This document shows positions 24,393 to 58,658 of a stretch of DNA of 64,000 nt, in pieces; position 1 is the first letter of the stretch; each line of letters starts with the position of its first letter. Source of the stretch: Rhodothermales bacterium (GTDB taxonomy: Bacteria > Bacteroidota > Rhodothermia > Rhodothermales > VXPQ01); contig JBBDTI010000094.1 in NCBI GenBank assembly GCA_040904565.1, positions 1 through 64,000 on the forward strand, written 5' to 3'. Both the position numbers and the translations under genes were made by a program. The notes beneath the pieces were generated by a model, which ran no database searches, was not told where the DNA came from, and saw only the letters and a program-made list of their open reading frames with translations.

Positions 24393-24952
24393 ATCAGCAT
24401 TTCAGGTCTTGCACCGTTTGGCAGGCGGCCCGCCACATACTCCTTCTGGTGCCCTATAGCACGTTCCGTGCAATCACGCTCTCTGCGCAGGCGCAACCGC
24501 CGCCTTACACTACGCCGATTAATCTCAGCGCGTGAACCAACTAAGATATGCACCGGGGCGTTCCGGAACAATTCAGGTCCGCTCGTGAGATTCCCCGAAA
24601 AGACCGTGAAGACGGCCCATAATGTCACAAGCCTCCCCGGATTCCGGGAACGGAGCTCCGAGCCGCGGACGCAGGCGAACGCCCCAGCGCCGTTGAGCAC
24701 CAGCCCGAGAATGCACCGGATGCTCTATGAAATCGGACGCGTCCACCTTGCCTTTCCAGGCCCAATTGGTTACCATAATTTTGTCAGCGTCCCCAAAGAT
24801 CTTGGCGCCAGATCAACTCTCCTTTTCGCTCGTCGAAAGGACCCGGGCATCCACATGGAGAGTGGCATCCGTACCGACACGGTCATCACCTAGATGCCTT
24901 TCTAGCGACCTACCACCAGGTCCGCGCCAACTTTGCAGGGCGCCTCGGGGCG

Positions 24953-25178
24953 CGTGGACAACATGTTAATAACCCGGCCCGGAATGTCTGCTTGTTCATG
25001 TGCCGCACCCGGTAGCGTGCGGCTTCTGACTGGCGGCTCTGTCTTCGCATGTGGCAAACCACTGTATATTTGTGGTTTAGAGGAAATTATCCTGGCGCTT
25101 CTCGCGATACGATCCGTGGGCGCCCGCATGACAGGTTAGCGCGACGTTTGGCGTCTGGGCACATGGGCATGTGAATAA
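24953..25178. promoter_or_regulatory. Weak DnaA-box cluster upstream of dnaA
   Basis: TGTGAATAA at 25170-25178 (consensus TTATNCACA on the minus strand). Degenerate CGTGGACAA at 24953-24961 and TGTTAATAA at 24964-24972. Confidence 0.5.
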
Positions 25179-25337
25179 CCGGTGCATATCGCTGCGCGCC
25201 TGTCGCAGCGTTTGTCGTCCGGTTCGCTTGAAAGCTAATTGGTGATGATCTTGTGCGAGTCAACCTCCTGACTGCGGCGGTCGGCTCCATAACCCAGCTG
25301 CGGTCCCTTCCGCCGCAACGTTCGAACAACCTTTTAT

Positions 25338-26852
25338 ATGGATACATCGCCTGACGACGTTTGGAACGCGTGTCTCGAAATCATACGGGATAACGTTACG
25401 CGCCAGAGCTTCAAAACGTGGTTCGAGCCGCTGAGAGCTGTCAGTCTGACAAGCGACGACGGCATTCAGAAGCTTACGGTCCAGCTTCCCAGCCGATTCT
25501 ACTATGAGTGGCTTGAGGAGCACTACCACAGCCTCCTTCGCAAGACCGTCGTAAAGGTTCTTGGGGCCGACGCTCGCCTTTTTTACGACATTGTCATTGA
25601 GCGCGACGACGTTCAGCGGGGTTATGAAGGGGCCTCCATGCACCTGCCTGCCCGTCCGGAGGATGAACCCTCGTCCGACGCGGAGCGATCTTCGCCGCCC
25701 TTTCCGACGACACGATATGCGGAGCCGGACGAGCGCTCCTCACCACGGCCTCCGCTTGACGCCTCGACCCCGGATGGTGGGCTCAATCCGTTCGTCGTAC
25801 CGGGTGTGCGAACGACTCGGATCGAAAGCCAGCTGAACGGATCGTACACGTTCGACCGCTTCATCGAAGGGGACTGCAATCGACTCGCACGCAGTGCCTC
25901 TTGGGCCATCGCACAACAGCCTGGAGCGACGAGCTTTAACCCGTTCCTCATCTATGGTGGCGTTGGCCTGGGAAAGACGCACCTCATTCAGGCCATCGGC
26001 AACTACGTTCGTCAGCAGGGCAACAAGTCCGTTTTATACGTTTCGAGTGAGCGCTTTACGTCCGACTTCGTTCAGTCCATTCAGCACAATCGCGTCAACG
26101 ATTTCAGTACGTTTTACCGCAACATCGACCTGCTCGTCATCGACGACGTGCAGTTTTTCAGCGGAAAGGAGAAGACGCAGGAAGAGTTCTTCCACGTATT
26201 CAACGCCCTGCACCAGGCAGGGAAGCAGATCGTGCTGTCGGGCGACCGGCCGCCACGTGAAATCGAAGGTATCGAGGAGCGGCTTCTCTCTCGATTTCAG
26301 TGGGGACTCACAGCCGACCTGCAGCAACCGGAGCTCGAGACGCGTATTGCGATACTTAACCGCAAGGCGGAAGACGACGGCATCGATCTTTCGCACGAGA
26401 TTATCGAGTTTATCGCGCACAACGTTAAGAGCAATATCCGTGAGCTGGAAGGTGCCCTTATTCGCCTTCTCGCCCACGCGACGCTGCACAAGCGAGAGAT
26501 CGATCTTCCTCTGGCGAAGGACGTGCTTCGTGACCTGATCAAGGAGACGCGAATCAATCTGACCATTGAGGAAATTCAGCGCGTCACGTGCGAATACTTT
26601 GACATCTCGGAAGACCTGGTCCGTGCTAAGACGCGCAAGCGAGAGATCGTCCAGGCGCGTCAGATTGCCATGTATTTCAGCAAGCAGATGACGCAGCATT
26701 CACTCAAGACGATCGGCCTGCACTTCGGTGGACGGGACCACTCGACCGTGATCCACTCCTGCCAGAGCGTCGAAAATCAGCTCGAAACCGATCCCAAATT
26801 CGGTGAGATGCTCGATGAGATCCGGCACAAGATCGAACTTCGTAGCCGGTGA
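25338..26852 (+). CDS. dnaA: Chromosomal replication initiator
   Basis: FNPFLIYGGVGLGKTHL, LVIDDVQF, RLLSRF and FGGRDHSTVIH. Confidence 0.99.
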   Translation: MDTSPDDVWNACLEIIRDNVTRQSFKTWFEPLRAVSLTSDDGIQKLTVQLPSRFYYEWLEEHYHSLLRKTVVKVLGADARLFYDIVIERDDVQRGYEGASMHLPARPEDEPSSDAERSSPPFPTTRYAEPDERSSPRPPLDASTPDGGLNPFVVPGVRTTRIESQLNGSYTFDRFIEGDCNRLARSASWAIAQQPGATSFNPFLIYGGVGLGKTHLIQAIGNYVRQQGNKSVLYVSSERFTSDFVQSIQHNRVNDFSTFYRNIDLLVIDDVQFFSGKEKTQEEFFHVFNALHQAGKQIVLSGDRPPREIEGIEERLLSRFQWGLTADLQQPELETRIAILNRKAEDDGIDLSHEIIEFIAHNVKSNIRELEGALIRLLAHATLHKREIDLPLAKDVLRDLIKETRINLTIEEIQRVTCEYFDISEDLVRAKTRKREIVQARQIAMYFSKQMTQHSLKTIGLHFGGRDHSTVIHSCQSVENQLETDPKFGEMLDEIRHKIELRSR

Positions 26853-26963
26853 GCCGGGGTCCGTTGCGTTCGGCTTTTCGGACCTCTGTTTGCTATCTTG
26901 TCGGATCCATCGATCGGGCGACGACTAACCTGTACTCACAATGCTTTTCCAAACGCTAGCCTC

Positions 26964-28097
26964 ATGAAGTTCACTGCCTCCAGTGCCGACCTACTTAAAG
27001 CACTGACGACCGTCGGGGGAGCCGTCCCTTCTAAAAGCACCCTTCCGATTCTGGAGTGCATTCTCTTCGAGCAACTGGATGATACGGGTCTTCGCCTTAG
27101 TGCGACGGATCTGGAGATTTCCATCGTTCAGCGCATCAACGTTCAGTTCGAGAGCAACGGCACGGGGGACGGTCAGCGCATCGCTGTACCCGCCAAGCGA
27201 TTGCTCGATACGCTGCGTGCTCTGCCTGACGTACCCATTCATTTTGAGGCCGACGACGAATTCCACGTCGTGCTCCAGACCGACATGGGTGAATACAAGA
27301 TGATCGGTCACGATGGAGCGGATTATCCCGCGCTGCCCGACCTGGATCCCGACCACCGGATCGAGACCGAGGGTGCCCTGCTCAAGCGGGCAATCGAAAA
27401 AACGAGTTTTGCCGTCAGTAAGGACGCACTTCGGCCGGCCATGATGGGCATCTACTTCCAGATCGGACCGGACGAAGGCCGTGCCGTGGCTACCGACGGC
27501 CACCGGCTGGTAAAACTCCGGCTAGAAGGAATGACGTCCGAGGAGCCGGTCAACTTCATCGTGCCGGAGAAAGCCATGTCGCTCGCTGGTAAGATCGTCT
27601 CGGACGACGTGTGCACGATACAGGTCGACGAGGGCTATGTGGGCTTCGATTTCGGCAACTCGCGCATTCTTGCCAGGCTCATAGACGAAGCGTATCCGAA
27701 CTACGAAGCCGTCATCCCCGGCGAAAACGATAAGCGGATGGTCGTATCAAGAGATGCCATGCTGGCAGCCGCCAAGCGTGTCGGACTCTACTCATCAAGC
27801 ATGACGAACCAGATACGCCTGTCCCTCGAAGCGGAGACGGTGGAGATATCCGCTGAGGATATCGAGCGCTCTAGCGAGGCACACGAGACCGTTCGGTGTG
27901 AATACGACAGCGAGCCCATGGTGATTGGCTTCAATTCGGTCTATCTCAACGAGGTACTCGGACACATCGACGACGACGAAGCGGTTTTCGAGTTCAGTTC
28001 ACCCAATCGTGCCGGCGTCGTCACTCCGGAAACGCAGCAGGACGGCGAGCACATCCTGATGCTCATCATGCCCGTCATGCTCAATACGTATGCGTAG
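26964..28097 (+). CDS. dnaN: DNA polymerase III beta clamp
   Basis: ATDLE, VATDGHRL, YPNYEAVIP and LIMPV. Start set at MKFTASS. Confidence 0.98.
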   Translation: MKFTASSADLLKALTTVGGAVPSKSTLPILECILFEQLDDTGLRLSATDLEISIVQRINVQFESNGTGDGQRIAVPAKRLLDTLRALPDVPIHFEADDEFHVVLQTDMGEYKMIGHDGADYPALPDLDPDHRIETEGALLKRAIEKTSFAVSKDALRPAMMGIYFQIGPDEGRAVATDGHRLVKLRLEGMTSEEPVNFIVPEKAMSLAGKIVSDDVCTIQVDEGYVGFDFGNSRILARLIDEAYPNYEAVIPGENDKRMVVSRDAMLAAAKRVGLYSSSMTNQIRLSLEAETVEISAEDIERSSEAHETVRCEYDSEPMVIGFNSVYLNEVLGHIDDDEAVFEFSSPNRAGVVTPETQQDGEHILMLIMPVMLNTYA

Positions 28098-36999: not shown

Positions 37000-38241
37000 A
37001 TGACGGCGAACGACGGGCATCCCGATCTGGAAGGGCGTCACATCTTGCTCGGCGTCACAGGCGGTATCGCAGCCTATAAGTCCGTCGAGCTCGTCCGCCT
37101 CCTCAAAAAGGCCGGTGCCGACGTGCAGGTCCTCATGACACCCGACGCCGGACGCTTCATCACGCCCCTGACGCTCGGGACCGTGTCGGAGCGTCCCGTC
37201 CTCACCGAGATCTTCGTCGACGGCGATGAAGGATCGTGGACCCGGCATATTTCTCTCGGCAGATGGGCCGCCCTCTTCGTGATCGCGCCGGCGACGGCGC
37301 AAACCCTGGCGAAGCTGGCTCACGGATTCAGCGATAACATGCTAACAGCGACGGCCCTCGCCGCCCGATGTCCGCTCCTCATCTGTCCGGCCATGGACCA
37401 CGACATGTTCGTGCATCCGGCTACGCAAAAAAACCTTGAGGTGCTGGCGGACCTCGGCTATACCGTGATGCCTCCGGCGTACGGCTCGCTGGCCAGCGGT
37501 CTCGTCGGGCAGGGGCGTCTCCCCGAGCCGGAGAGCATTCGCGACGCCGTCGTCGACATGCTCGGCGACCGGGCGCACGGGGAAAGCCTTGCCGGACAGC
37601 GGGTCCTCGTAACAGCCGGACCCACGCGCGAACACATCGATCCTGTTCGGTATATCAGCAACCCGTCCTCCGGCAAGATGGGCTTCGCCCTAGCCGCCGC
37701 CGCCGCCCGCCGAGGCGCCGACGTAACCCTCGTTACAGGCCCCACGCATCTGCCCACTCCGAGCGGCGTGACGCGCGTCGACGTAGAATCAGCCGAGCAG
37801 ATGCACAGCTCCGTGATGGAGCATCGTGGGGCGGACATCATTATCATGGCGGCTGCCGTGGCTGACTATTCGCCCATCGATACGTCCACCCAAAAGATGA
37901 AAAAACACGACGGCGACGTGGCCCTGCAGCTTCGTCGTACGCCGGATATCCTTTCCGAGCTCGGCGCCCGGCGATCCGACGATCAGATCCTCGTCGGGTT
38001 TGCCATGGAGACGGACGACGGTCTCGCGCATGCGCGCGAGAAGCTCGACGAAAAGAACGTGGACTGGATTGTGCTGAACACGCTAACGGATGAGGGCGCC
38101 GGTTTCGGTGTGGATACAAACCGCGTCACCCTTATCAGCCGCCTCGGCGAAGAAGAGGAGCTTCCCCTCATGTCGAAGCGGCGTGTGGCGGAAGCGATTC
38201 TGGATCGCCTCCGGTTCGATGCGACGAAGCCAGCGGCCTGA
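37000..38241 (+). CDS. coaBC: Bifunctional PPC decarboxylase / PPC synthetase
   Basis: [39 protein letters not shown] and VGFAMET. Start set at ATG 37000. Confidence 0.97.
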
Positions 38242-38283
38242 CACGCCGCTGTCACTGCCCATCCCTTATATAGTCTGGTGGGG

Positions 38284-38328
38284 TTGTCCACATCCTTCGT
38301 GGATAACCCTGTGCGCACTTCGTTGACA
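38284..38328. promoter_or_regulatory. Pair of inverted DnaA boxes plus a TTGACA -35 element upstream of udg-dnaB
   Basis: TTGTCCACA at 38284-38292 and CGTGGATAA at 38298-38306 (one mismatch each). TTGACA at 38323-38328. Confidence 0.6.
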
Positions 38329-54131: not shown

Positions 54132-54470
54132 AATGTCAAGCTACTGCTCAGGAACGGCTACGCGCGAACGGGCCGTCAATGCTGGTACGATGCGTGTCGG
54201 ATGACGGTGAGGCCGGTTGGGCACGGTCGACCTCGCGCAAGGGCGACGATACACGCCGGAAAGCTACATATTCATGAACCCCGCTGAGGTTCTTCCGGCA
54301 ACCCACTTTCATACGCTGTTCGCTCCAAATCGACGGACCCGACGCGCAAAGAGGTTACGTAGCCGGTAGGTAGCGTGTCTACCGAATGGGGCGATCCTGC
54401 CAGCCCCGTCCCCGGTCTTCGTACGTCGCCGTACGGAGAGATACTGCGTTTCAGCTCGCCTTCTTCCTCG

Positions 54471-56906
54471 ATGCGTGTGCCCGTTCCTGTAGCCGGTTAT
54501 CCTGCCGCCGCTGCGTCCATCGCCTTTGCCAGCGGCATCGTGGCCGCCTCGTGCGTGCCGTGGGATGCGGGAGCATGGCTGACGCGATTGGGTCTCGTAG
54601 CGGTGCTCCCAGGGGCCCTGTGGGGACTATCCCGTTCGATTCGCCCATTGAATCCAGACCCCGGCGTCATCACCCTCATTGCATTGATCGCAACGCTCTG
54701 TGCGGGGGCTATGCGATACACCACGTTTTATGCAATTCCTCAGAACCACGATGTGCTGGCGTTCGCCGCCGAGCGCGAGTCGGAATGGACGGGTTACGTC
54801 GCCGATCCGCCGACGATTTCACGGGGAAGCGTTCGCTTCACCCTACGATTGAAAGGGAACGATTCGTCCCTCGGCATCCTCGTATCGGGACGCTTGCCGC
54901 CCGGGACGCGCGTCAGTCAATGCGATGCCGTCCGCGTTCGCGGCCGCTCCGCTCGACTCCCACGCCCACGCAATCCCGGGGAATTCGACTATGGGTCGCA
55001 CCTGGCACGGCAGCGCATCTACCTCCGGGTTTACCTTTCCGACGGCGGACTAACCCATATAGGCCGGCGGCGCAGCGGATTCATCTGTGCGGCGGAACCG
55101 ATACGATCGATCGTACGCGCTCGCCTCGATCGATACGTGTCTGAAGAACGCCCCCGGGCCGTACTGCAGGCACTCATCCTCGGAGACAGACGCGGGATCG
55201 ATAGCGGCATCCGCGGTCAGTTCGCGCGAATGGGCCTGCTTCATCTGCTGGCGGTATCCGGTCTGCACGTTATGGTCGTAGGGATGGTTTTCTACCGGGT
55301 CATCGGTCCATCTCTCAAGCGGATGGGGTTCAGCTGGCGATCAGCGAATCGGCTTCGAGCAACGTCCACGGCCCTCCTCCTCGTTGGATATATGTTGTTG
55401 ACGGGATGTACGGCCTCAGTCGTTCGCGCCGTCGTCATGGCGCTACTCTTCTTGCTCTCGACCGTGCTCCAGCGACCTTCGCGGCCCATCAATACGCTGG
55501 GACTCGCCGTTATGCTTCTCCTCGTCGTCCGGCCCGCGCACCTCTATGAGGCAGGGTTTCAGCTCTCCGTCACTGCGGTTGCGGCTATACTGCTTATCAC
55601 CCCACAGCTCCAGGTGTGGATACCTGTACCTTCTGGAAAAGTACTGCGACATGTCCACGGCGTGACGTCGGTCACCGTAGCGGCAACACTCGGCACGCTC
55701 CCCGTCGTGCTGTTTCACTTCGGCCAGGTTGGGCTGGCCGGACTCCTACTCAACATTCCGGGGATTCCACTGACGACGGCGGCTCTCGCAGCAGGGATCG
55801 CGGCGATCGTCTCCGGCGGTTCGATCGAGGCGGCCGGATTGAACATGGGCTCGTCCGCGACCCTGCTGGCACAAGCACTACTGTCTGTCGCCGAACTGGG
55901 AGATATCTACATGCCGTGGAGCGTCGTTCGTCTTCACATCGAAGATCCGACGATCACCGCGGCGATCGCCCTTATCGTCGTCGCCATTTCAGCTGGGTTC
56001 GCTCCAGCACATCGATGGAGATGCCTGCTGGCTGCACTAACCTTGTGGACGCTGCATCTGGGCACCGGGATCGTACGAGGCGACTACCGACCACACGTCG
56101 ATCTCGTGTTTTTTGACGTGGGACAGGGGGATGCCATATTGCTCCGCTTTCCGGGTGGTAAGAACGTGCTGGTCGATGCCGGACCGCGATCCATCTTCAC
56201 CGATGCGGGAGCTCGCGTCATTCTGCCGCAACTCACCTATCACGGTGTATCACGCCTGTCGAGCGTCGTCATTACGCATCCTGACAGCGATCATCTCGGC
56301 GGACTTCCAACGCTCCTGCGTTCCGTACCTGTGGATCGCGTGATACAATCGGATTACCAGCATACCTCCGCCCTATACCTCGAGACGGAGTCCATCGTCG
56401 ACAGCCTCGGTGTACCTCGTCAGACGGTTCGTTCCGGCGATACGCTATCGTTCTCGCAGCAGGCCTACGTCCGCGTGCTGCATCCCCCAGCATCGTACGT
56501 AAAGGCAACACCGAACGAGCACTCGATCGTACTCGCGATTCGATTTGGAACCGTAACGGCACTGCTGATGGGAGACGTACCGGTCGAGGTGGAGTACGAC
56601 CTTCTCCAACGCTACGGAGATCTTCTACGTAGCGACATTCTGAAGGTGGGTCATCATGGCTCGCGTACCAGCTCGTCGGCCGCATTCGTCGCGGGTGTGC
56701 ATCCCCGGAAAGAAAGGGGAGAAGGAAAAATCCTTCCCTACGCGGTCATAAGCGTGGCGGAAAGCAATCGGTTTGGTCTGCCGGACGAAGACGTTATCGA
56801 TCGACTCCGGCGCACGGACTATAGAATTGCCATGACGGCGGAGTCAGGTGCCATCTGGATTCGAACGGATGGAAGGAATGTGAAGCAGGTCGATTGGCGC
56901 AAATGA
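54471..56906 (+). CDS. comEC: DNA internalization competence protein ComEC/Rec2
   Basis: RNPGEFDY, HLLAVSGLH, GFQLS, DVGQGD, THPDSDH and HHGS.TSS. Start is uncertain (54375 or 54471). Confidence 0.93.
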   Translation: MRVPVPVAGYPAAAASIAFASGIVAASCVPWDAGAWLTRLGLVAVLPGALWGLSRSIRPLNPDPGVITLIALIATLCAGAMRYTTFYAIPQNHDVLAFAAERESEWTGYVADPPTISRGSVRFTLRLKGNDSSLGILVSGRLPPGTRVSQCDAVRVRGRSARLPRPRNPGEFDYGSHLARQRIYLRVYLSDGGLTHIGRRRSGFICAAEPIRSIVRARLDRYVSEERPRAVLQALILGDRRGIDSGIRGQFARMGLLHLLAVSGLHVMVVGMVFYRVIGPSLKRMGFSWRSANRLRATSTALLLVGYMLLTGCTASVVRAVVMALLFLLSTVLQRPSRPINTLGLAVMLLLVVRPAHLYEAGFQLSVTAVAAILLITPQLQVWIPVPSGKVLRHVHGVTSVTVAATLGTLPVVLFHFGQVGLAGLLLNIPGIPLTTAALAAGIAAIVSGGSIEAAGLNMGSSATLLAQALLSVAELGDIYMPWSVVRLHIEDPTITAAIALIVVAISAGFAPAHRWRCLLAALTLWTLHLGTGIVRGDYRPHVDLVFFDVGQGDAILLRFPGGKNVLVDAGPRSIFTDAGARVILPQLTYHGVSRLSSVVITHPDSDHLGGLPTLLRSVPVDRVIQSDYQHTSALYLETESIVDSLGVPRQTVRSGDTLSFSQQAYVRVLHPPASYVKATPNEHSIVLAIRFGTVTALLMGDVPVEVEYDLLQRYGDLLRSDILKVGHHGSRTSSSAAFVAGVHPRKERGEGKILPYAVISVAESNRFGLPDEDVIDRLRRTDYRIAMTAESGAIWIRTDGRNVKQVDWRK

Positions 56907-56911
56907 AAGGA

Positions 56912-57290
56912 TTACGCACATCCTAACAGGCCCTAGTATAGTATCGGTATTATTTAAAAGAGTAGTAGTATGTTGTAGTAGGGGCTGTTGACATGTGGAG
57001 ATGTCGTCTTTTCACATTACCGTTTAGCGAATGTGGAAAATAACGCCGCTCTATACCCATTCTCATTCACGACGATTGTTTGGAATACGGTCGAGGGATC
57101 TGAAGTAAGAGCGAATTATACACGTTAATCCACGCCTCGCTCTATATGGTCGGACGGCGTTGTTCACACGCGTAGGCCTGTGAACATCATCTTGATCGAT
57201 GTTGGCAGCAGGGATACTTGTACACGCCAATCCACGGGGACGGCGGGTATTCACATGCGTGGGGATAACCTTGTGGCTTATCCACAGGGC
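56912..57290. other. Probable chromosomal replication origin (oriC)
   Basis: Intergenic region between convergent comEC and pgi. AT-rich TATTATTTAAAA (56948-56959), TAG-repeat trio tract (56961-56981), GGGGC clamp, then tandem degenerate boxes. Perfect TTATCCACA at 57278-57286 plus about ten boxes with 1-3 mismatches. Confidence 0.8.
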
Positions 57291-57383
57291 GTGCACAGCG
57301 ATTGCTCGATTGCGGTTGACCTGCCAGACGGGCGCGGCCGGTAGTTCACTCCGGCCGCGCGGCACGACATTGCCTCCTTCTTT

Positions 57384-58658
57384 CTAGGGGCGGCCGAGCC
57401 GGCTGAACATCTCCTTCTTGTAGGCTTCGACACCGGGCTGATCGAAGGGGTTCACACCGAGGAGATATCCGGAAACCGAGACGGCATGCTCGAAAAAATA
57501 GATGGCTTCGCCGATAGATTTCGGCGAGACGTTTTCAAGCCACAGTGTCATGTTGGGTACTCCGCCGTCTGCGTGTGCCCGTGACGTGCCGTTGTGAGCC
57601 GCCCGATTCACAAAACTCATCGTTTTCCCGGCGACGTAATTGAGACCGTCCAGATCGTCGTCCGACGAAGGGATTTCCAGATCTCCCCCGTCGTCTTCGA
57701 CCATCAAGAAGGTCTCCGCCAGAGTCCGCTGCCCGTCCTGGACGTATTGCCCGATGGAGTGCAGGTCGGTCGTATACTGAGCGACCGAAGGAAACAGGCC
57801 CGTCCCGTCCTTGCCTTCGCTCTCTCCGAACAGCTGCTGCCACCAGAGGCCAAAGCCATGGAGGCGAGGCTCGAAGACGGAAAGAAGGTCGACTGACAGT
57901 CCCCCGTCCAGAAGCGCCGACCGAACGGCGGCGTAGAGAAGTGCCGGGTTGCCTTCGGCGGACGCTAGTGCATTGCAGGCGTCGACGGCACCATAGAATA
58001 ACGACGACGTGTCGATACCGGCTGACGCTATGGGTAGGAGTCCGACCGGCGTGAGTACGGAGAACCGACCGCCGACGTCCCGCGGGATCTCAAATTTGCG
58101 GTACCCGCGCTCCGCTGACAGTGTATTGAGCGCCCCGGCACTCGGATCGGTGGTCACGATGATGCGGCGCTCCGGATCGTCGTACGTATTCTCGAGATGG
58201 CGCCGGATCGACCGGAAGGCGAGGGCGGGTTCCAGCGTCGTCCCGCTCTTCGAGATGACATTGACGTAGACCGATCGTCCCTCGAGATACTGCAGGAGTT
58301 CGTGAAGATACGTACCGCTCAGGTGATGGCCGGCAAAGACGATCTCGGGGACATCACTCGGGTGCCGGAAGTAGGGGGTCAGTGCCTGAATGACGGCTCT
58401 GGCACCGAGGTATGAGCCACCGATACCGATACAGACGAGGACGTCGGCTTCTTCGCTGATCTCCTGCGCCGTCTCCGAAACGCGGCCCAACAGCGCGTCG
58501 TCCGGTTCCACGAGGAGGTCGCGCCATCCGGTAGCGTCACTTCCCGGGCCGGCCTTCTTCAGCAGCGTCCGGTGGGCACCTTCTGCGCCCGTAATTCTGG
58601 CGTCCAGGACCGACGCGTCGAGAAAGGGGAGCGTGTTGTCGTGATCGAGTCGCAGCAT
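57384..58658 (-). CDS. pgi: Glucose-6-phosphate isomerase
   Basis: GIGGSYLG, SKSGTT.E, GGRFS, QLFGESEGK, DLHSIGQ and NPFDQPGVE.YK. Confidence 0.98.
   Translation of the reverse strand: MLRLDHDNTLPFLDASVLDARITGAEGAHRTLLKKAGPGSDATGWRDLLVEPDDALLGRVSETAQEISEEADVLVCIGIGGSYLGARAVIQALTPYFRHPSDVPEIVFAGHHLSGTYLHELLQYLEGRSVYVNVISKSGTTLEPALAFRSIRRHLENTYDDPERRIIVTTDPSAGALNTLSAERGYRKFEIPRDVGGRFSVLTPVGLLPIASAGIDTSSLFYGAVDACNALASAEGNPALLYAAVRSALLDGGLSVDLLSVFEPRLHGFGLWWQQLFGESEGKDGTGLFPSVAQYTTDLHSIGQYVQDGQRTLAETFLMVEDDGGDLEIPSSDDDLDGLNYVAGKTMSFVNRAAHNGTSRAHADGGVPNMTLWLENVSPKSIGEAIYFFEHAVSVSGYLLGVNPFDQPGVEAYKKEMFSRLGRP

Follow-up and report, generated by a model that had tools for sequence, protein, structure and literature searches.

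A compact candidate bilateral replication origin with a mirrored DnaA-box arm in Rhodothermales

Introduction

A one-sided basal unwinding system (BUS) has been described for B. subtilis and many other bacteria (PMC8287927). In this system tandem DnaA boxes, of which the upstream one is nearer consensus, are followed by a GC-rich spacer of ~4 nt, by 5'-TAG-3' trios on the TGTGGATAA strand, and by AT-rich DNA. B. subtilis requires at least three trios, as cited in the same paper, and the published search rule also sets three as its minimum: it accepts a box with ≤2 mismatches located 0-16 bp from the trios, an optional second box with ≤4 mismatches, and an unbroken run of three or more trios whose middle base is A (PMC8287927). 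A 2026 study distinguishes three origin layouts, termed canonical, bipartite and bilateral (PMC13643167). In bilateral origins DnaA boxes flank the DNA unwinding element (DUE) on both sides, and by the account of that study the origin of T. tengcongensis is the only one of this type to be experimentally validated. Here we describe the origin region between comEC and pgi in a window of 64,000 nucleotides from a Rhodothermales bacterium (positions 1 to 64,000 of contig JBBDTI010000094.1, assembly GCA_040904565.1), in which two DnaA-box arms face each other across an AT-rich element.

Two cases frame the comparison. In T. tengcongensis, DnaA boxes 8 and 9 enclose the AT-rich region (PMC1888806). 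In an engineered E. coli origin, BL-oriC, an inward-facing second DnaA region was placed beyond the DUE; this origin supports DnaB loading in vitro at approximately the wild-type level, and its far-side complex requires contacts with both single-stranded DNA (ssDNA) and DnaB (PMC13643167). Further bilateral origins have been predicted in Thermoanaerobacter, proteobacteria and cyanobacteria (PMC13643167). Judged from its sequence and by analogy with these systems, the Rhodothermales locus (56907-57383) is probably a compact natural bilateral origin that combines a canonical right-side opener with a minimal left-side DnaA anchor in mirrored form, for which we favour roles in stabilising the bubble and placing a second helicase.

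Results

Identification of the chromosomal origin

The 477-bp intergenic gap between the stop codons of comEC (56904-56906) and pgi holds both arms and is, by composition and box density, the chromosomal origin (oriC, 56907-57383). When boxes are counted at ≤2 mismatches to TTATCCACA, the gap contains 10 DnaA boxes per 450 bp, the maximum of the 4.02-Mb assembly; the runner-up 450-bp region contains 6, and the genome mean is 0.6. At ≤1 mismatch the gap contains 3 boxes, equal with two other sites, and this count does not set the origin apart. Cumulative GC skew is lowest at ~50-56 kb on the 70-kb contig, and the 40 bp of the locus that are poorest in GC contain 10 G+C, in surroundings of ~59% G+C.

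Two closed genomes place related modules at a switch in skew. In the relative G007, a homologous module is found at 818.1 kb, where the sign of the GC skew changes: among sampled 20-kb windows, skew was negative in 8/8 between 0 and 820 kb and positive in 7/7 between 820 kb and 1.77 Mb. In G277, which belongs to another order of the same class and has 39% G+C, skew was negative in 5/5 windows to the left of the module and positive in 5/5 to its right. We read the gap as oriC because it holds the densest DnaA-box cluster, lies at the local GC-skew minimum, and has counterparts at the skew switch in two closed relatives. A preliminary description of this DNA, made from its letters alone, had also placed the comEC-pgi element within oriC, and box density and skew both bear this out.

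Architecture of the two arms

The left arm abuts coding DNA, with the comEC stop codon 6 nt away. Its distal DnaA box, TTACGCACA (56912-56920, + strand, 2 mismatches to TTATCCACA), faces the DUE and is joined in an 8-bp register, mirroring that of the right-arm tandem boxes, to a degenerate proximal box, TCCTAACA (56921-56928, + strand); relatives in the family carry (G)CATTCACA and similar sequences at the proximal position. A GC clamp, GGCC (56929-56932), mirrors the GGGC clamp on the right and is followed by the trio-like triplets CTA GTA (56933-56938), read as TAC TAG on the - strand. The phase is kept by CTA and GTA only, and with the third triplet, TAG, the pattern ends; the left trios are thus weaker than the right ones, as had been noted in the preliminary description. 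We detected no additional box with ≤2 mismatches in the adjoining 56800-56911, so that the left side here comprises one good and one degenerate box; some relatives have up to three.

Between the clamps lies the AT-rich DUE of ~48 bp (56933-56981), which is low in G+C. It contains a distal trio run, TAG TAG TAT (56963-56971, + strand), shifted by one base against the phase of the proximal DnaA-trios TAG TAG of the right arm (56976-56981, + strand), which are preceded by TTG at 56973-56975. The right GC clamp, GGGC (56982-56985), was assigned from the sequence together with the family alignment. It is followed by the tandem boxes TGTTGACA (56986-56993) and TGTGGAGAT (56994-57002) on the - strand (reverse complement ATCTCCACA, 2 mismatches), a position at which relatives carry TGTGGATATGTGGA. 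By sequence, this order of box, clamp and trios is that of a canonical unwinding module. The inner box-to-box gap between the two arms is 57 bp here and 51-58 bp in relatives, or about five helical turns.

To the right, the tandem boxes adjoin a forward box, CTTTTCACA (57008-57016, + strand, 3 mismatches), whose equivalent in relatives is TTATTCACA, TTGTTCACA or TTATGCACA. Beyond it extends a putative DnaA-oligomerisation region (57032-57286) with boxes starting at 57032 (-), 57116 (+), 57126 (+), 57160 (+), 57247 (+), 57260 (-), 57272 (-) and 57278 (+, a perfect TTATCCACA). The right-hand box array covers ~300 bp and includes at least eight further boxes. It carries a duplication, in which a ~60-bp unit with three forward-oriented boxes occurs at 57116-57176 and at 57218-57263; it shows as the direct repeats D2 (84% identity) and D3 (86% identity), spaced 102 and 87 bp apart.

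The two arms form an inverted repeat: 56917-56935 (CACATCCTAACAGGCCCTA) matches the reverse complement of 56979-56997 at 15/19 nt, across a spacer of 43 nt (56936-56978). We could confirm here what the preliminary description had reported, namely the 15/19 match, the 43-bp spacer, and in each arm two degenerate boxes, a clamp and inward-pointing trios. A repeat search with 6-nt seeds did not list this repeat, since the arms share no exact 6-mer, and we verified it by script. By our own binomial estimate, a few inverted repeats of 15/19 are expected by chance per 64 kb; we consider this one to be beyond chance because it is placed around the DUE and conserved in relatives. When the arms are extended to 27 nt, spanning two boxes, clamp and two triplets, 18/27 positions match, and 0/500 shuffles of the left flank equal this value.

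Conservation of the left box among relatives

A DNA search of 40 relatives recovered the 3' end of pgi in 30 and the DUE region itself in four. The right-arm module (TAG repeats, GGGC and TGTGGATATGTGGA) is located beside pgi in 25 of the 30 loci, our own genome included. The other five (L007, L012, L013, L021 and L028) have no right-arm anchor by pgi and stand outside the 25-locus counts; in one of them, L012 of genome G019, the module is present ~1.4 kb farther off. Across these 25 order-level loci, an inward-facing left box with ≤2 mismatches was found in 23/25, located 63-83 bp before the right-arm anchor. The outward orientation was seen in 1/25, and size-matched control windows contained a box at ≤2 mismatches in 2.4% of cases.

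We also searched 400 genomes of the phylum with the right arm alone (TAGTAGNNNNTGTGGAWATGTG, one mismatch). This pattern occurs in 32/401 genomes, and all matches in other genomes but one lie within the class; the reversed control gave 7 matches. From this search we added 25 loci that were picked by the right arm only, blind to the left side, after removing L080-L083 as duplicate genomes and L054 as a probable chance match outside the class. An inward box was present in 25/25 of the added loci, nine of them with a perfect TTATCCACA.

Taken over all 50 origins, which span two orders, the best inward box has ≤2 mismatches in 48/50 and an outward box does so in 2/50. The preliminary description had tied its proposal to conservation of the left arm in the comEC-pgi interval of relatives, and our comparison shows the arm to be conserved. 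In 34 origins, 51-56 bp separate the best left box from the right proximal box; in 13 the separation is 60-66 bp, and in 3 it is 73-74 bp. At the longer gaps (60-66 and 73-74 bp), the top-scoring box is the distal one of a tandem set. The left-box feature extends over genomes with ~39% to 59% G+C among those measured.

A direct search for the head-to-head pattern, TTNTCCAC-N52-57-TGTGGAWWWGTG, identified 46/401 genomes of the phylum, 44 of them in the class, and its reversed control matched 0/401. By family, the pattern was found in 41/61 genomes of f29, 2/2 of f31 and 1/2 of f2. In the 301 genomes outside the class, the right-arm pattern was found once and the head-to-head pattern twice, the latter without AT-rich DNA between the boxes; we thus did not detect the layout there at that stringency, which does not show absence.

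The f29 origins, which belong to the other order (L055-L113), have a conserved RGATTT motif at the center of the DUE, mostly as GAGATTTA. Their + strand is A-rich in the left half of the DUE and carries TAG trios in the right half. The RGATTT motif may be an additional element for protein or ssDNA binding.

Symmetry of the arms within and outside the family

In the family of the window, represented by 16 loci, the 27-nt arms match at 14-20/27 positions across spacers of 32-38 bp, and the match exceeds that of shuffled sequences at p ≤ 0.05 in 15/16. Outside the family, the 27-nt mirror exceeds shuffles in 2/9 loci. The family's tandem boxes keep an equal 8-bp register on both sides, as in one left arm that reads TTATCCAC-GCATTCACA-AGCC and its matching right arm, which reads TTATTCAC-ATATCCACA-GCCC on the - strand.

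We compared the trios triplet by triplet in the 16 family genomes, scoring YTA on the left and TAR on the right. Triplet 1 fits in 14/16 on the left and 15/16 on the right, and triplet 2 in 14/16 and 16/16. The third triplet is YTA in 1/16 on the left (NTN in 2/16) and TAR in 10/16 on the right; the fourth scores 1/16 and 4/16, and the fifth 1/16 and 6/16. CTA-YTA is the best-conserved stretch in the left half of the DUE (14/16). The left arm of the window's family copies the boxes, the clamp and exactly two trios, with nothing beyond.

This full mirror of tandem boxes, clamp and two triplets is conserved in the window's own family only. In the other order, the left side consists of a single strong box and two or three G/C, and inspection by eye of 29 distinct modules revealed no evident left trios. 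In the window itself, the + strand of the left DUE half is rich in G and poor in C, as is that of the right half, so the - strand of the left half lacks the G/A-rich character of trios.

A duplication of dnaA is fixed in the very family that has the full mirror-image origin. Two dnaA copies are present in 19/19 genomes of the window's family and in 5/22 genomes from the other families of the order. In the window, dnaA (25338-26852, + strand) is followed by dnaN (26898-28097), and this dnaA-dnaN pair (25338-28097) lies 30 kb from oriC; the second, full-length copy is encoded on another contig of the same genome (C67, L032 925-2628, - strand). The two paralogs are 50% identical overall, and both contain domains I-IV.

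Comparison with described origins

The right arm resembles the BUS in its tandem boxes, GC-rich spacer, trios and AT-rich DNA. Its box TGTGGAGAT has 2 mismatches and lies 12 bp from the trios (an 8-nt second box plus the 4-nt clamp), within the published box rule (PMC8287927). Its trios fall short of the rule in this genome, with two TAG and then TTG, and three more one base out of phase; in 10/16 family genomes the right arm has 3-5 TAGs and satisfies the rule. On the - strand, the left-arm box TTACGCACA also obeys the box rule, with 2 mismatches and 12 bp to CTA, and is followed by two trios. The left arm, and strictly also the right arm of this genome, therefore do not qualify as BUS, because they do not reach three contiguous trios. 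The two also differ in that the BUS is one-sided, whereas here an inverted second copy of boxes, clamp and two triplets lies across the DUE. The main text of PMC8287927 does not mention symmetry, inversion, 'both sides', Bacteroid- or Rhodotherm-; its supplements could hold predicted origins of this clade.

With bilateral origins the locus shares DnaA boxes on both sides of the unwinding element, the inward left box being present in 48/50 origins, and a short, unusually AT-rich DUE; with engineered BL-oriC it also shares the inward orientation of the far-side DnaA region (PMC13643167). The differences lie in scale and symmetry. The 472-bp origin of T. tengcongensis, next to dnaA, has its boxes in clusters (1-8 and 9-12), whereas here one or two far-side boxes lie at a tightly fixed distance. 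Unlike either T. tengcongensis or BL-oriC, one family here is mirror-imaged down to the clamp and two triplets, and the full one-sided right array is kept, making the left arm an addition rather than a relocated half. The main text of PMC13643167, Supplementary Fig. S8 aside, does not name this clade among bilateral origins.

The preliminary description presented this architecture as one not previously described, which was too strong: bilateral oriC is named in PMC13643167, T. tengcongensis provides a validated case, and the E. coli version is functional. As a kind, two-sided origins were known before, though the layout is rarely documented. In the literature we found no description of an origin from this clade (under Bacteroidetes, Salinibacter, Rhodothermus, Rhodothermaeota or Balneola), no far-side arm with only one or two boxes and a fixed spacing of five turns, and no mirror copy of a box-clamp-trio module.

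Initiator sites on two sides of a melting region are familiar from archaea, where Orc1/Cdc6 sites flank an AT-rich region in inverted orientation. The parallel between such bracketing sites and bilateral origins is drawn in PMC13643167; here it is an analogy only, as the archaeal initiator is Orc1/Cdc6 rather than DnaA and MCM is loaded on duplex DNA. E. coli oriC also has two oppositely oriented DnaA assemblies: the side with R1, whose TGTGGATAA points toward the DUE, opens the DNA, and the other helps to load a second DnaB (PMC13643167). Both E. coli assemblies are on one side of the DUE, whereas the Rhodothermales origin has one on each side. The forward-oriented boxes at 57116-57286 resemble the oppositely oriented Right region of E. 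coli.

Discussion

How the two arms may work

We propose that the right arm opens this origin and that the left arm serves as an anchor on the far side. ATP-DnaA bound to the right-arm boxes would extend a filament onto the trio strand and open the DUE. The left arm would anchor one or two DnaA molecules facing the bubble, building a small second subcomplex from the far side that could hold or limit the bubble and help to place a second DnaB helicase on the other strand, as has been proposed for bilateral origins. In the window's family, left-arm DnaA may also touch the first two triplets of the - strand. A structural role for the left arm is suggested by its strict orientation and spacing, and bubble stabilisation and second-helicase placement are favoured because of the analogy with the E. 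coli origin engineered in this way. Our analysis shows the anatomy of the locus, how it is conserved and, from composition and box density, where the origin lies; that DnaA binds there, in which direction its filament runs and that it takes part in loading helicase are what we infer.

Weighing the alternatives

The preliminary description envisaged a true double unwinding module, in which an ATP-DnaA filament is nucleated at either arm, each on a strand of its own, the DUE melts symmetrically, and one helicase is loaded per strand. Part of this picture holds: the box faces inward, and within the family the left arm copies the right element for element, in its 8-bp register, its 4-nt clamp and its triplets, TAR-TAG on the - strand. 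CTA-YTA is the most conserved part of the left DUE half, and since the right arm of this genome also has two in-phase trios, both arms are here formally on a par. A division of labour would be possible between the two full-length dnaA paralogs found throughout the family, though this is speculative. Less well supported is a second complete module. The left trios end after two, whereas a third TAR is frequent on the right and the run there reaches up to five; three are needed in B. subtilis and by the published search (PMC8287927). Outside the family there is one left box with no trios evident by eye and a mirror that is significant in few loci, and the - strand of the left DUE half lacks the G/A-rich character of trios. 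We therefore regard two complete modules as unlikely. A narrower version, in which the family's origin is a mirror-image double unwinding system with short DnaA filaments on opposite strands of the 48-bp DUE and two DnaA paralogs dividing the work by arm or by step, strikes us as improbable.

The left arm could instead be a regulatory or boundary DnaA site that stops unwinding or the filament short of the neighbouring gene, forms a bridge to the right arm through DnaA domain I that constrains the DUE into a small loop, or acts in titration or negative control. The fixed spacing of about five turns and the strict orientation suggest a geometric constraint of the kind that a protein bridge or barrier would impose, the arm directly abuts the comEC coding region, and the far-side boxes of T. 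tengcongensis are dispensable for opening (PMC1888806). Nothing in the sequence separates such a site from one that loads helicase. Guarding a particular gene is unlikely, however, as the neighbouring gene varies by lineage, and a mere barrier leaves the mirrored clamp and triplets of the family unexplained. We consider a purely regulatory or boundary site quite unlikely.

We also considered whether the two arms are a chance inverted repeat, or a terminator hairpin of comEC, with no role in replication. A repeat of this quality is expected a few times in 64 kb, the left arm begins 6 nt past the comEC stop codon, and an Rfam search (E ≤ 1) returned one weak match to a miRNA hairpin across the arms. 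The comEC homologue (54375-56906, + strand; Pfam Competence, DUF4131 and Lactamase_B) and pgi, encoding glucose-6-phosphate isomerase (57384-58658, - strand; Pfam PGI), flank the origin here, but the arrangement differs in relatives. In eight g8 loci (L004, L008, L009, L016, L017, L019, L023 and L027), comEC is inverted and diverges from the origin, so that these origins lie in a divergent promoter region rather than after the end of a gene, and the left arm is kept. It is also kept in the three loci in which comEC is co-oriented and in the five in which comEC ends 800-900 bp off, giving 13 arm-keeping loci with comEC inverted or distant. A pattern scan detected no terminator-like site on the left arm, and the RNA fold of 56895-56960 (-8.3 kcal/mol, z = 0.46) is equalled by 126/200 shuffles. 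The left arm is thus not only a comEC terminator hairpin, one of the possibilities on which the earlier proposal would have foundered. With orientation and spacing conserved over two orders, the conservation data effectively refute both chance and a terminator, and we hold either to be extremely improbable.

We rejected a structured RNA as a separate candidate. The miRNA-hairpin match is the sole Rfam match and is sub-threshold (20.4 bits, gathering score 60, E = 0.23), and we take it to be a side effect of the inverted repeat.

Several observations weigh against the bilateral anchor that we prefer. Opening of the T. tengcongensis origin in vitro does not require its far-side boxes 9-12 (PMC1888806), and the far-side arm may for that reason be dispensable for melting here as well. 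With one or two boxes, the left side may fall short of the 'cluster' of the published definition of a bilateral origin. The family's conserved pair of mirrored triplets is not explained by an anchor that purely recruits helicase. The genomes compared are kin, so that our counts overstate independent support. In 80 named Rhodothermales loci (including Salinivenus, Longimonas and Rubricoccaceae), which overlap in part with our other locus sets, we recognised the right arm by pgi in 40 and did not find the pattern in the other 40; among the 40 with a right arm, an inward box is present at ≤2 mismatches in 31 and at three mismatches in 5, and is absent in 4. The cultured species Longimonas halophila (L162) is among those with the left box. 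Finally, in the closed genome G039 (68% G+C), skew around the module is too weak to tell whether it marks the origin.

Four loci (L132, L135, L137 and L142), on metagenome-assembled contigs named as Rhodothermales and Salinibacteraceae, have a clear right arm and no left inward box, the best candidate having 5 mismatches. They look like natural one-sided comparators within the same order.

Significance

An open problem in bacterial replication is how a single asymmetric DnaA assembly gives rise to two helicases loaded in opposite directions. Origins of the two-sided kind bear on it through one validated natural example, T. tengcongensis, according to PMC13643167, and one engineered E. coli mimic. 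If read correctly, this clade supplies a natural and very compact two-sided origin conserved over two orders. It offers a defined natural substrate of ~90 bp on which to study far-side DnaA and the second helicase, the sufficiency of two trios, and specialisation of the DnaA paralogs. Should the mirror-image double system prove true, it would load two helicases symmetrically, in a manner closer to archaeal origins than to the E. coli or B. subtilis models; should the left arm prove dispensable, the finding would shrink to the annotation of oriC in an under-studied group.

Other DnaA-box clusters

A box cluster upstream of dnaA (~24950-25180) contains 6 boxes at ≤2 mismatches per 450 bp. We considered a second origin in this region (~24950-25340) and rejected it: the boxes are scattered and no AT-rich element, clamp or trios accompany them, and we read the region as the dnaA promoter. 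The cluster probably serves dnaA autoregulation. Away from the origin, three near-consensus DnaA boxes (≤1 mismatch) lie within a few hundred bp of one another at each of two sites, 38109-38306 in the window and 17954-18347 on contig C68 of the same genome. These sites could be DnaA titration or reactivation sites.

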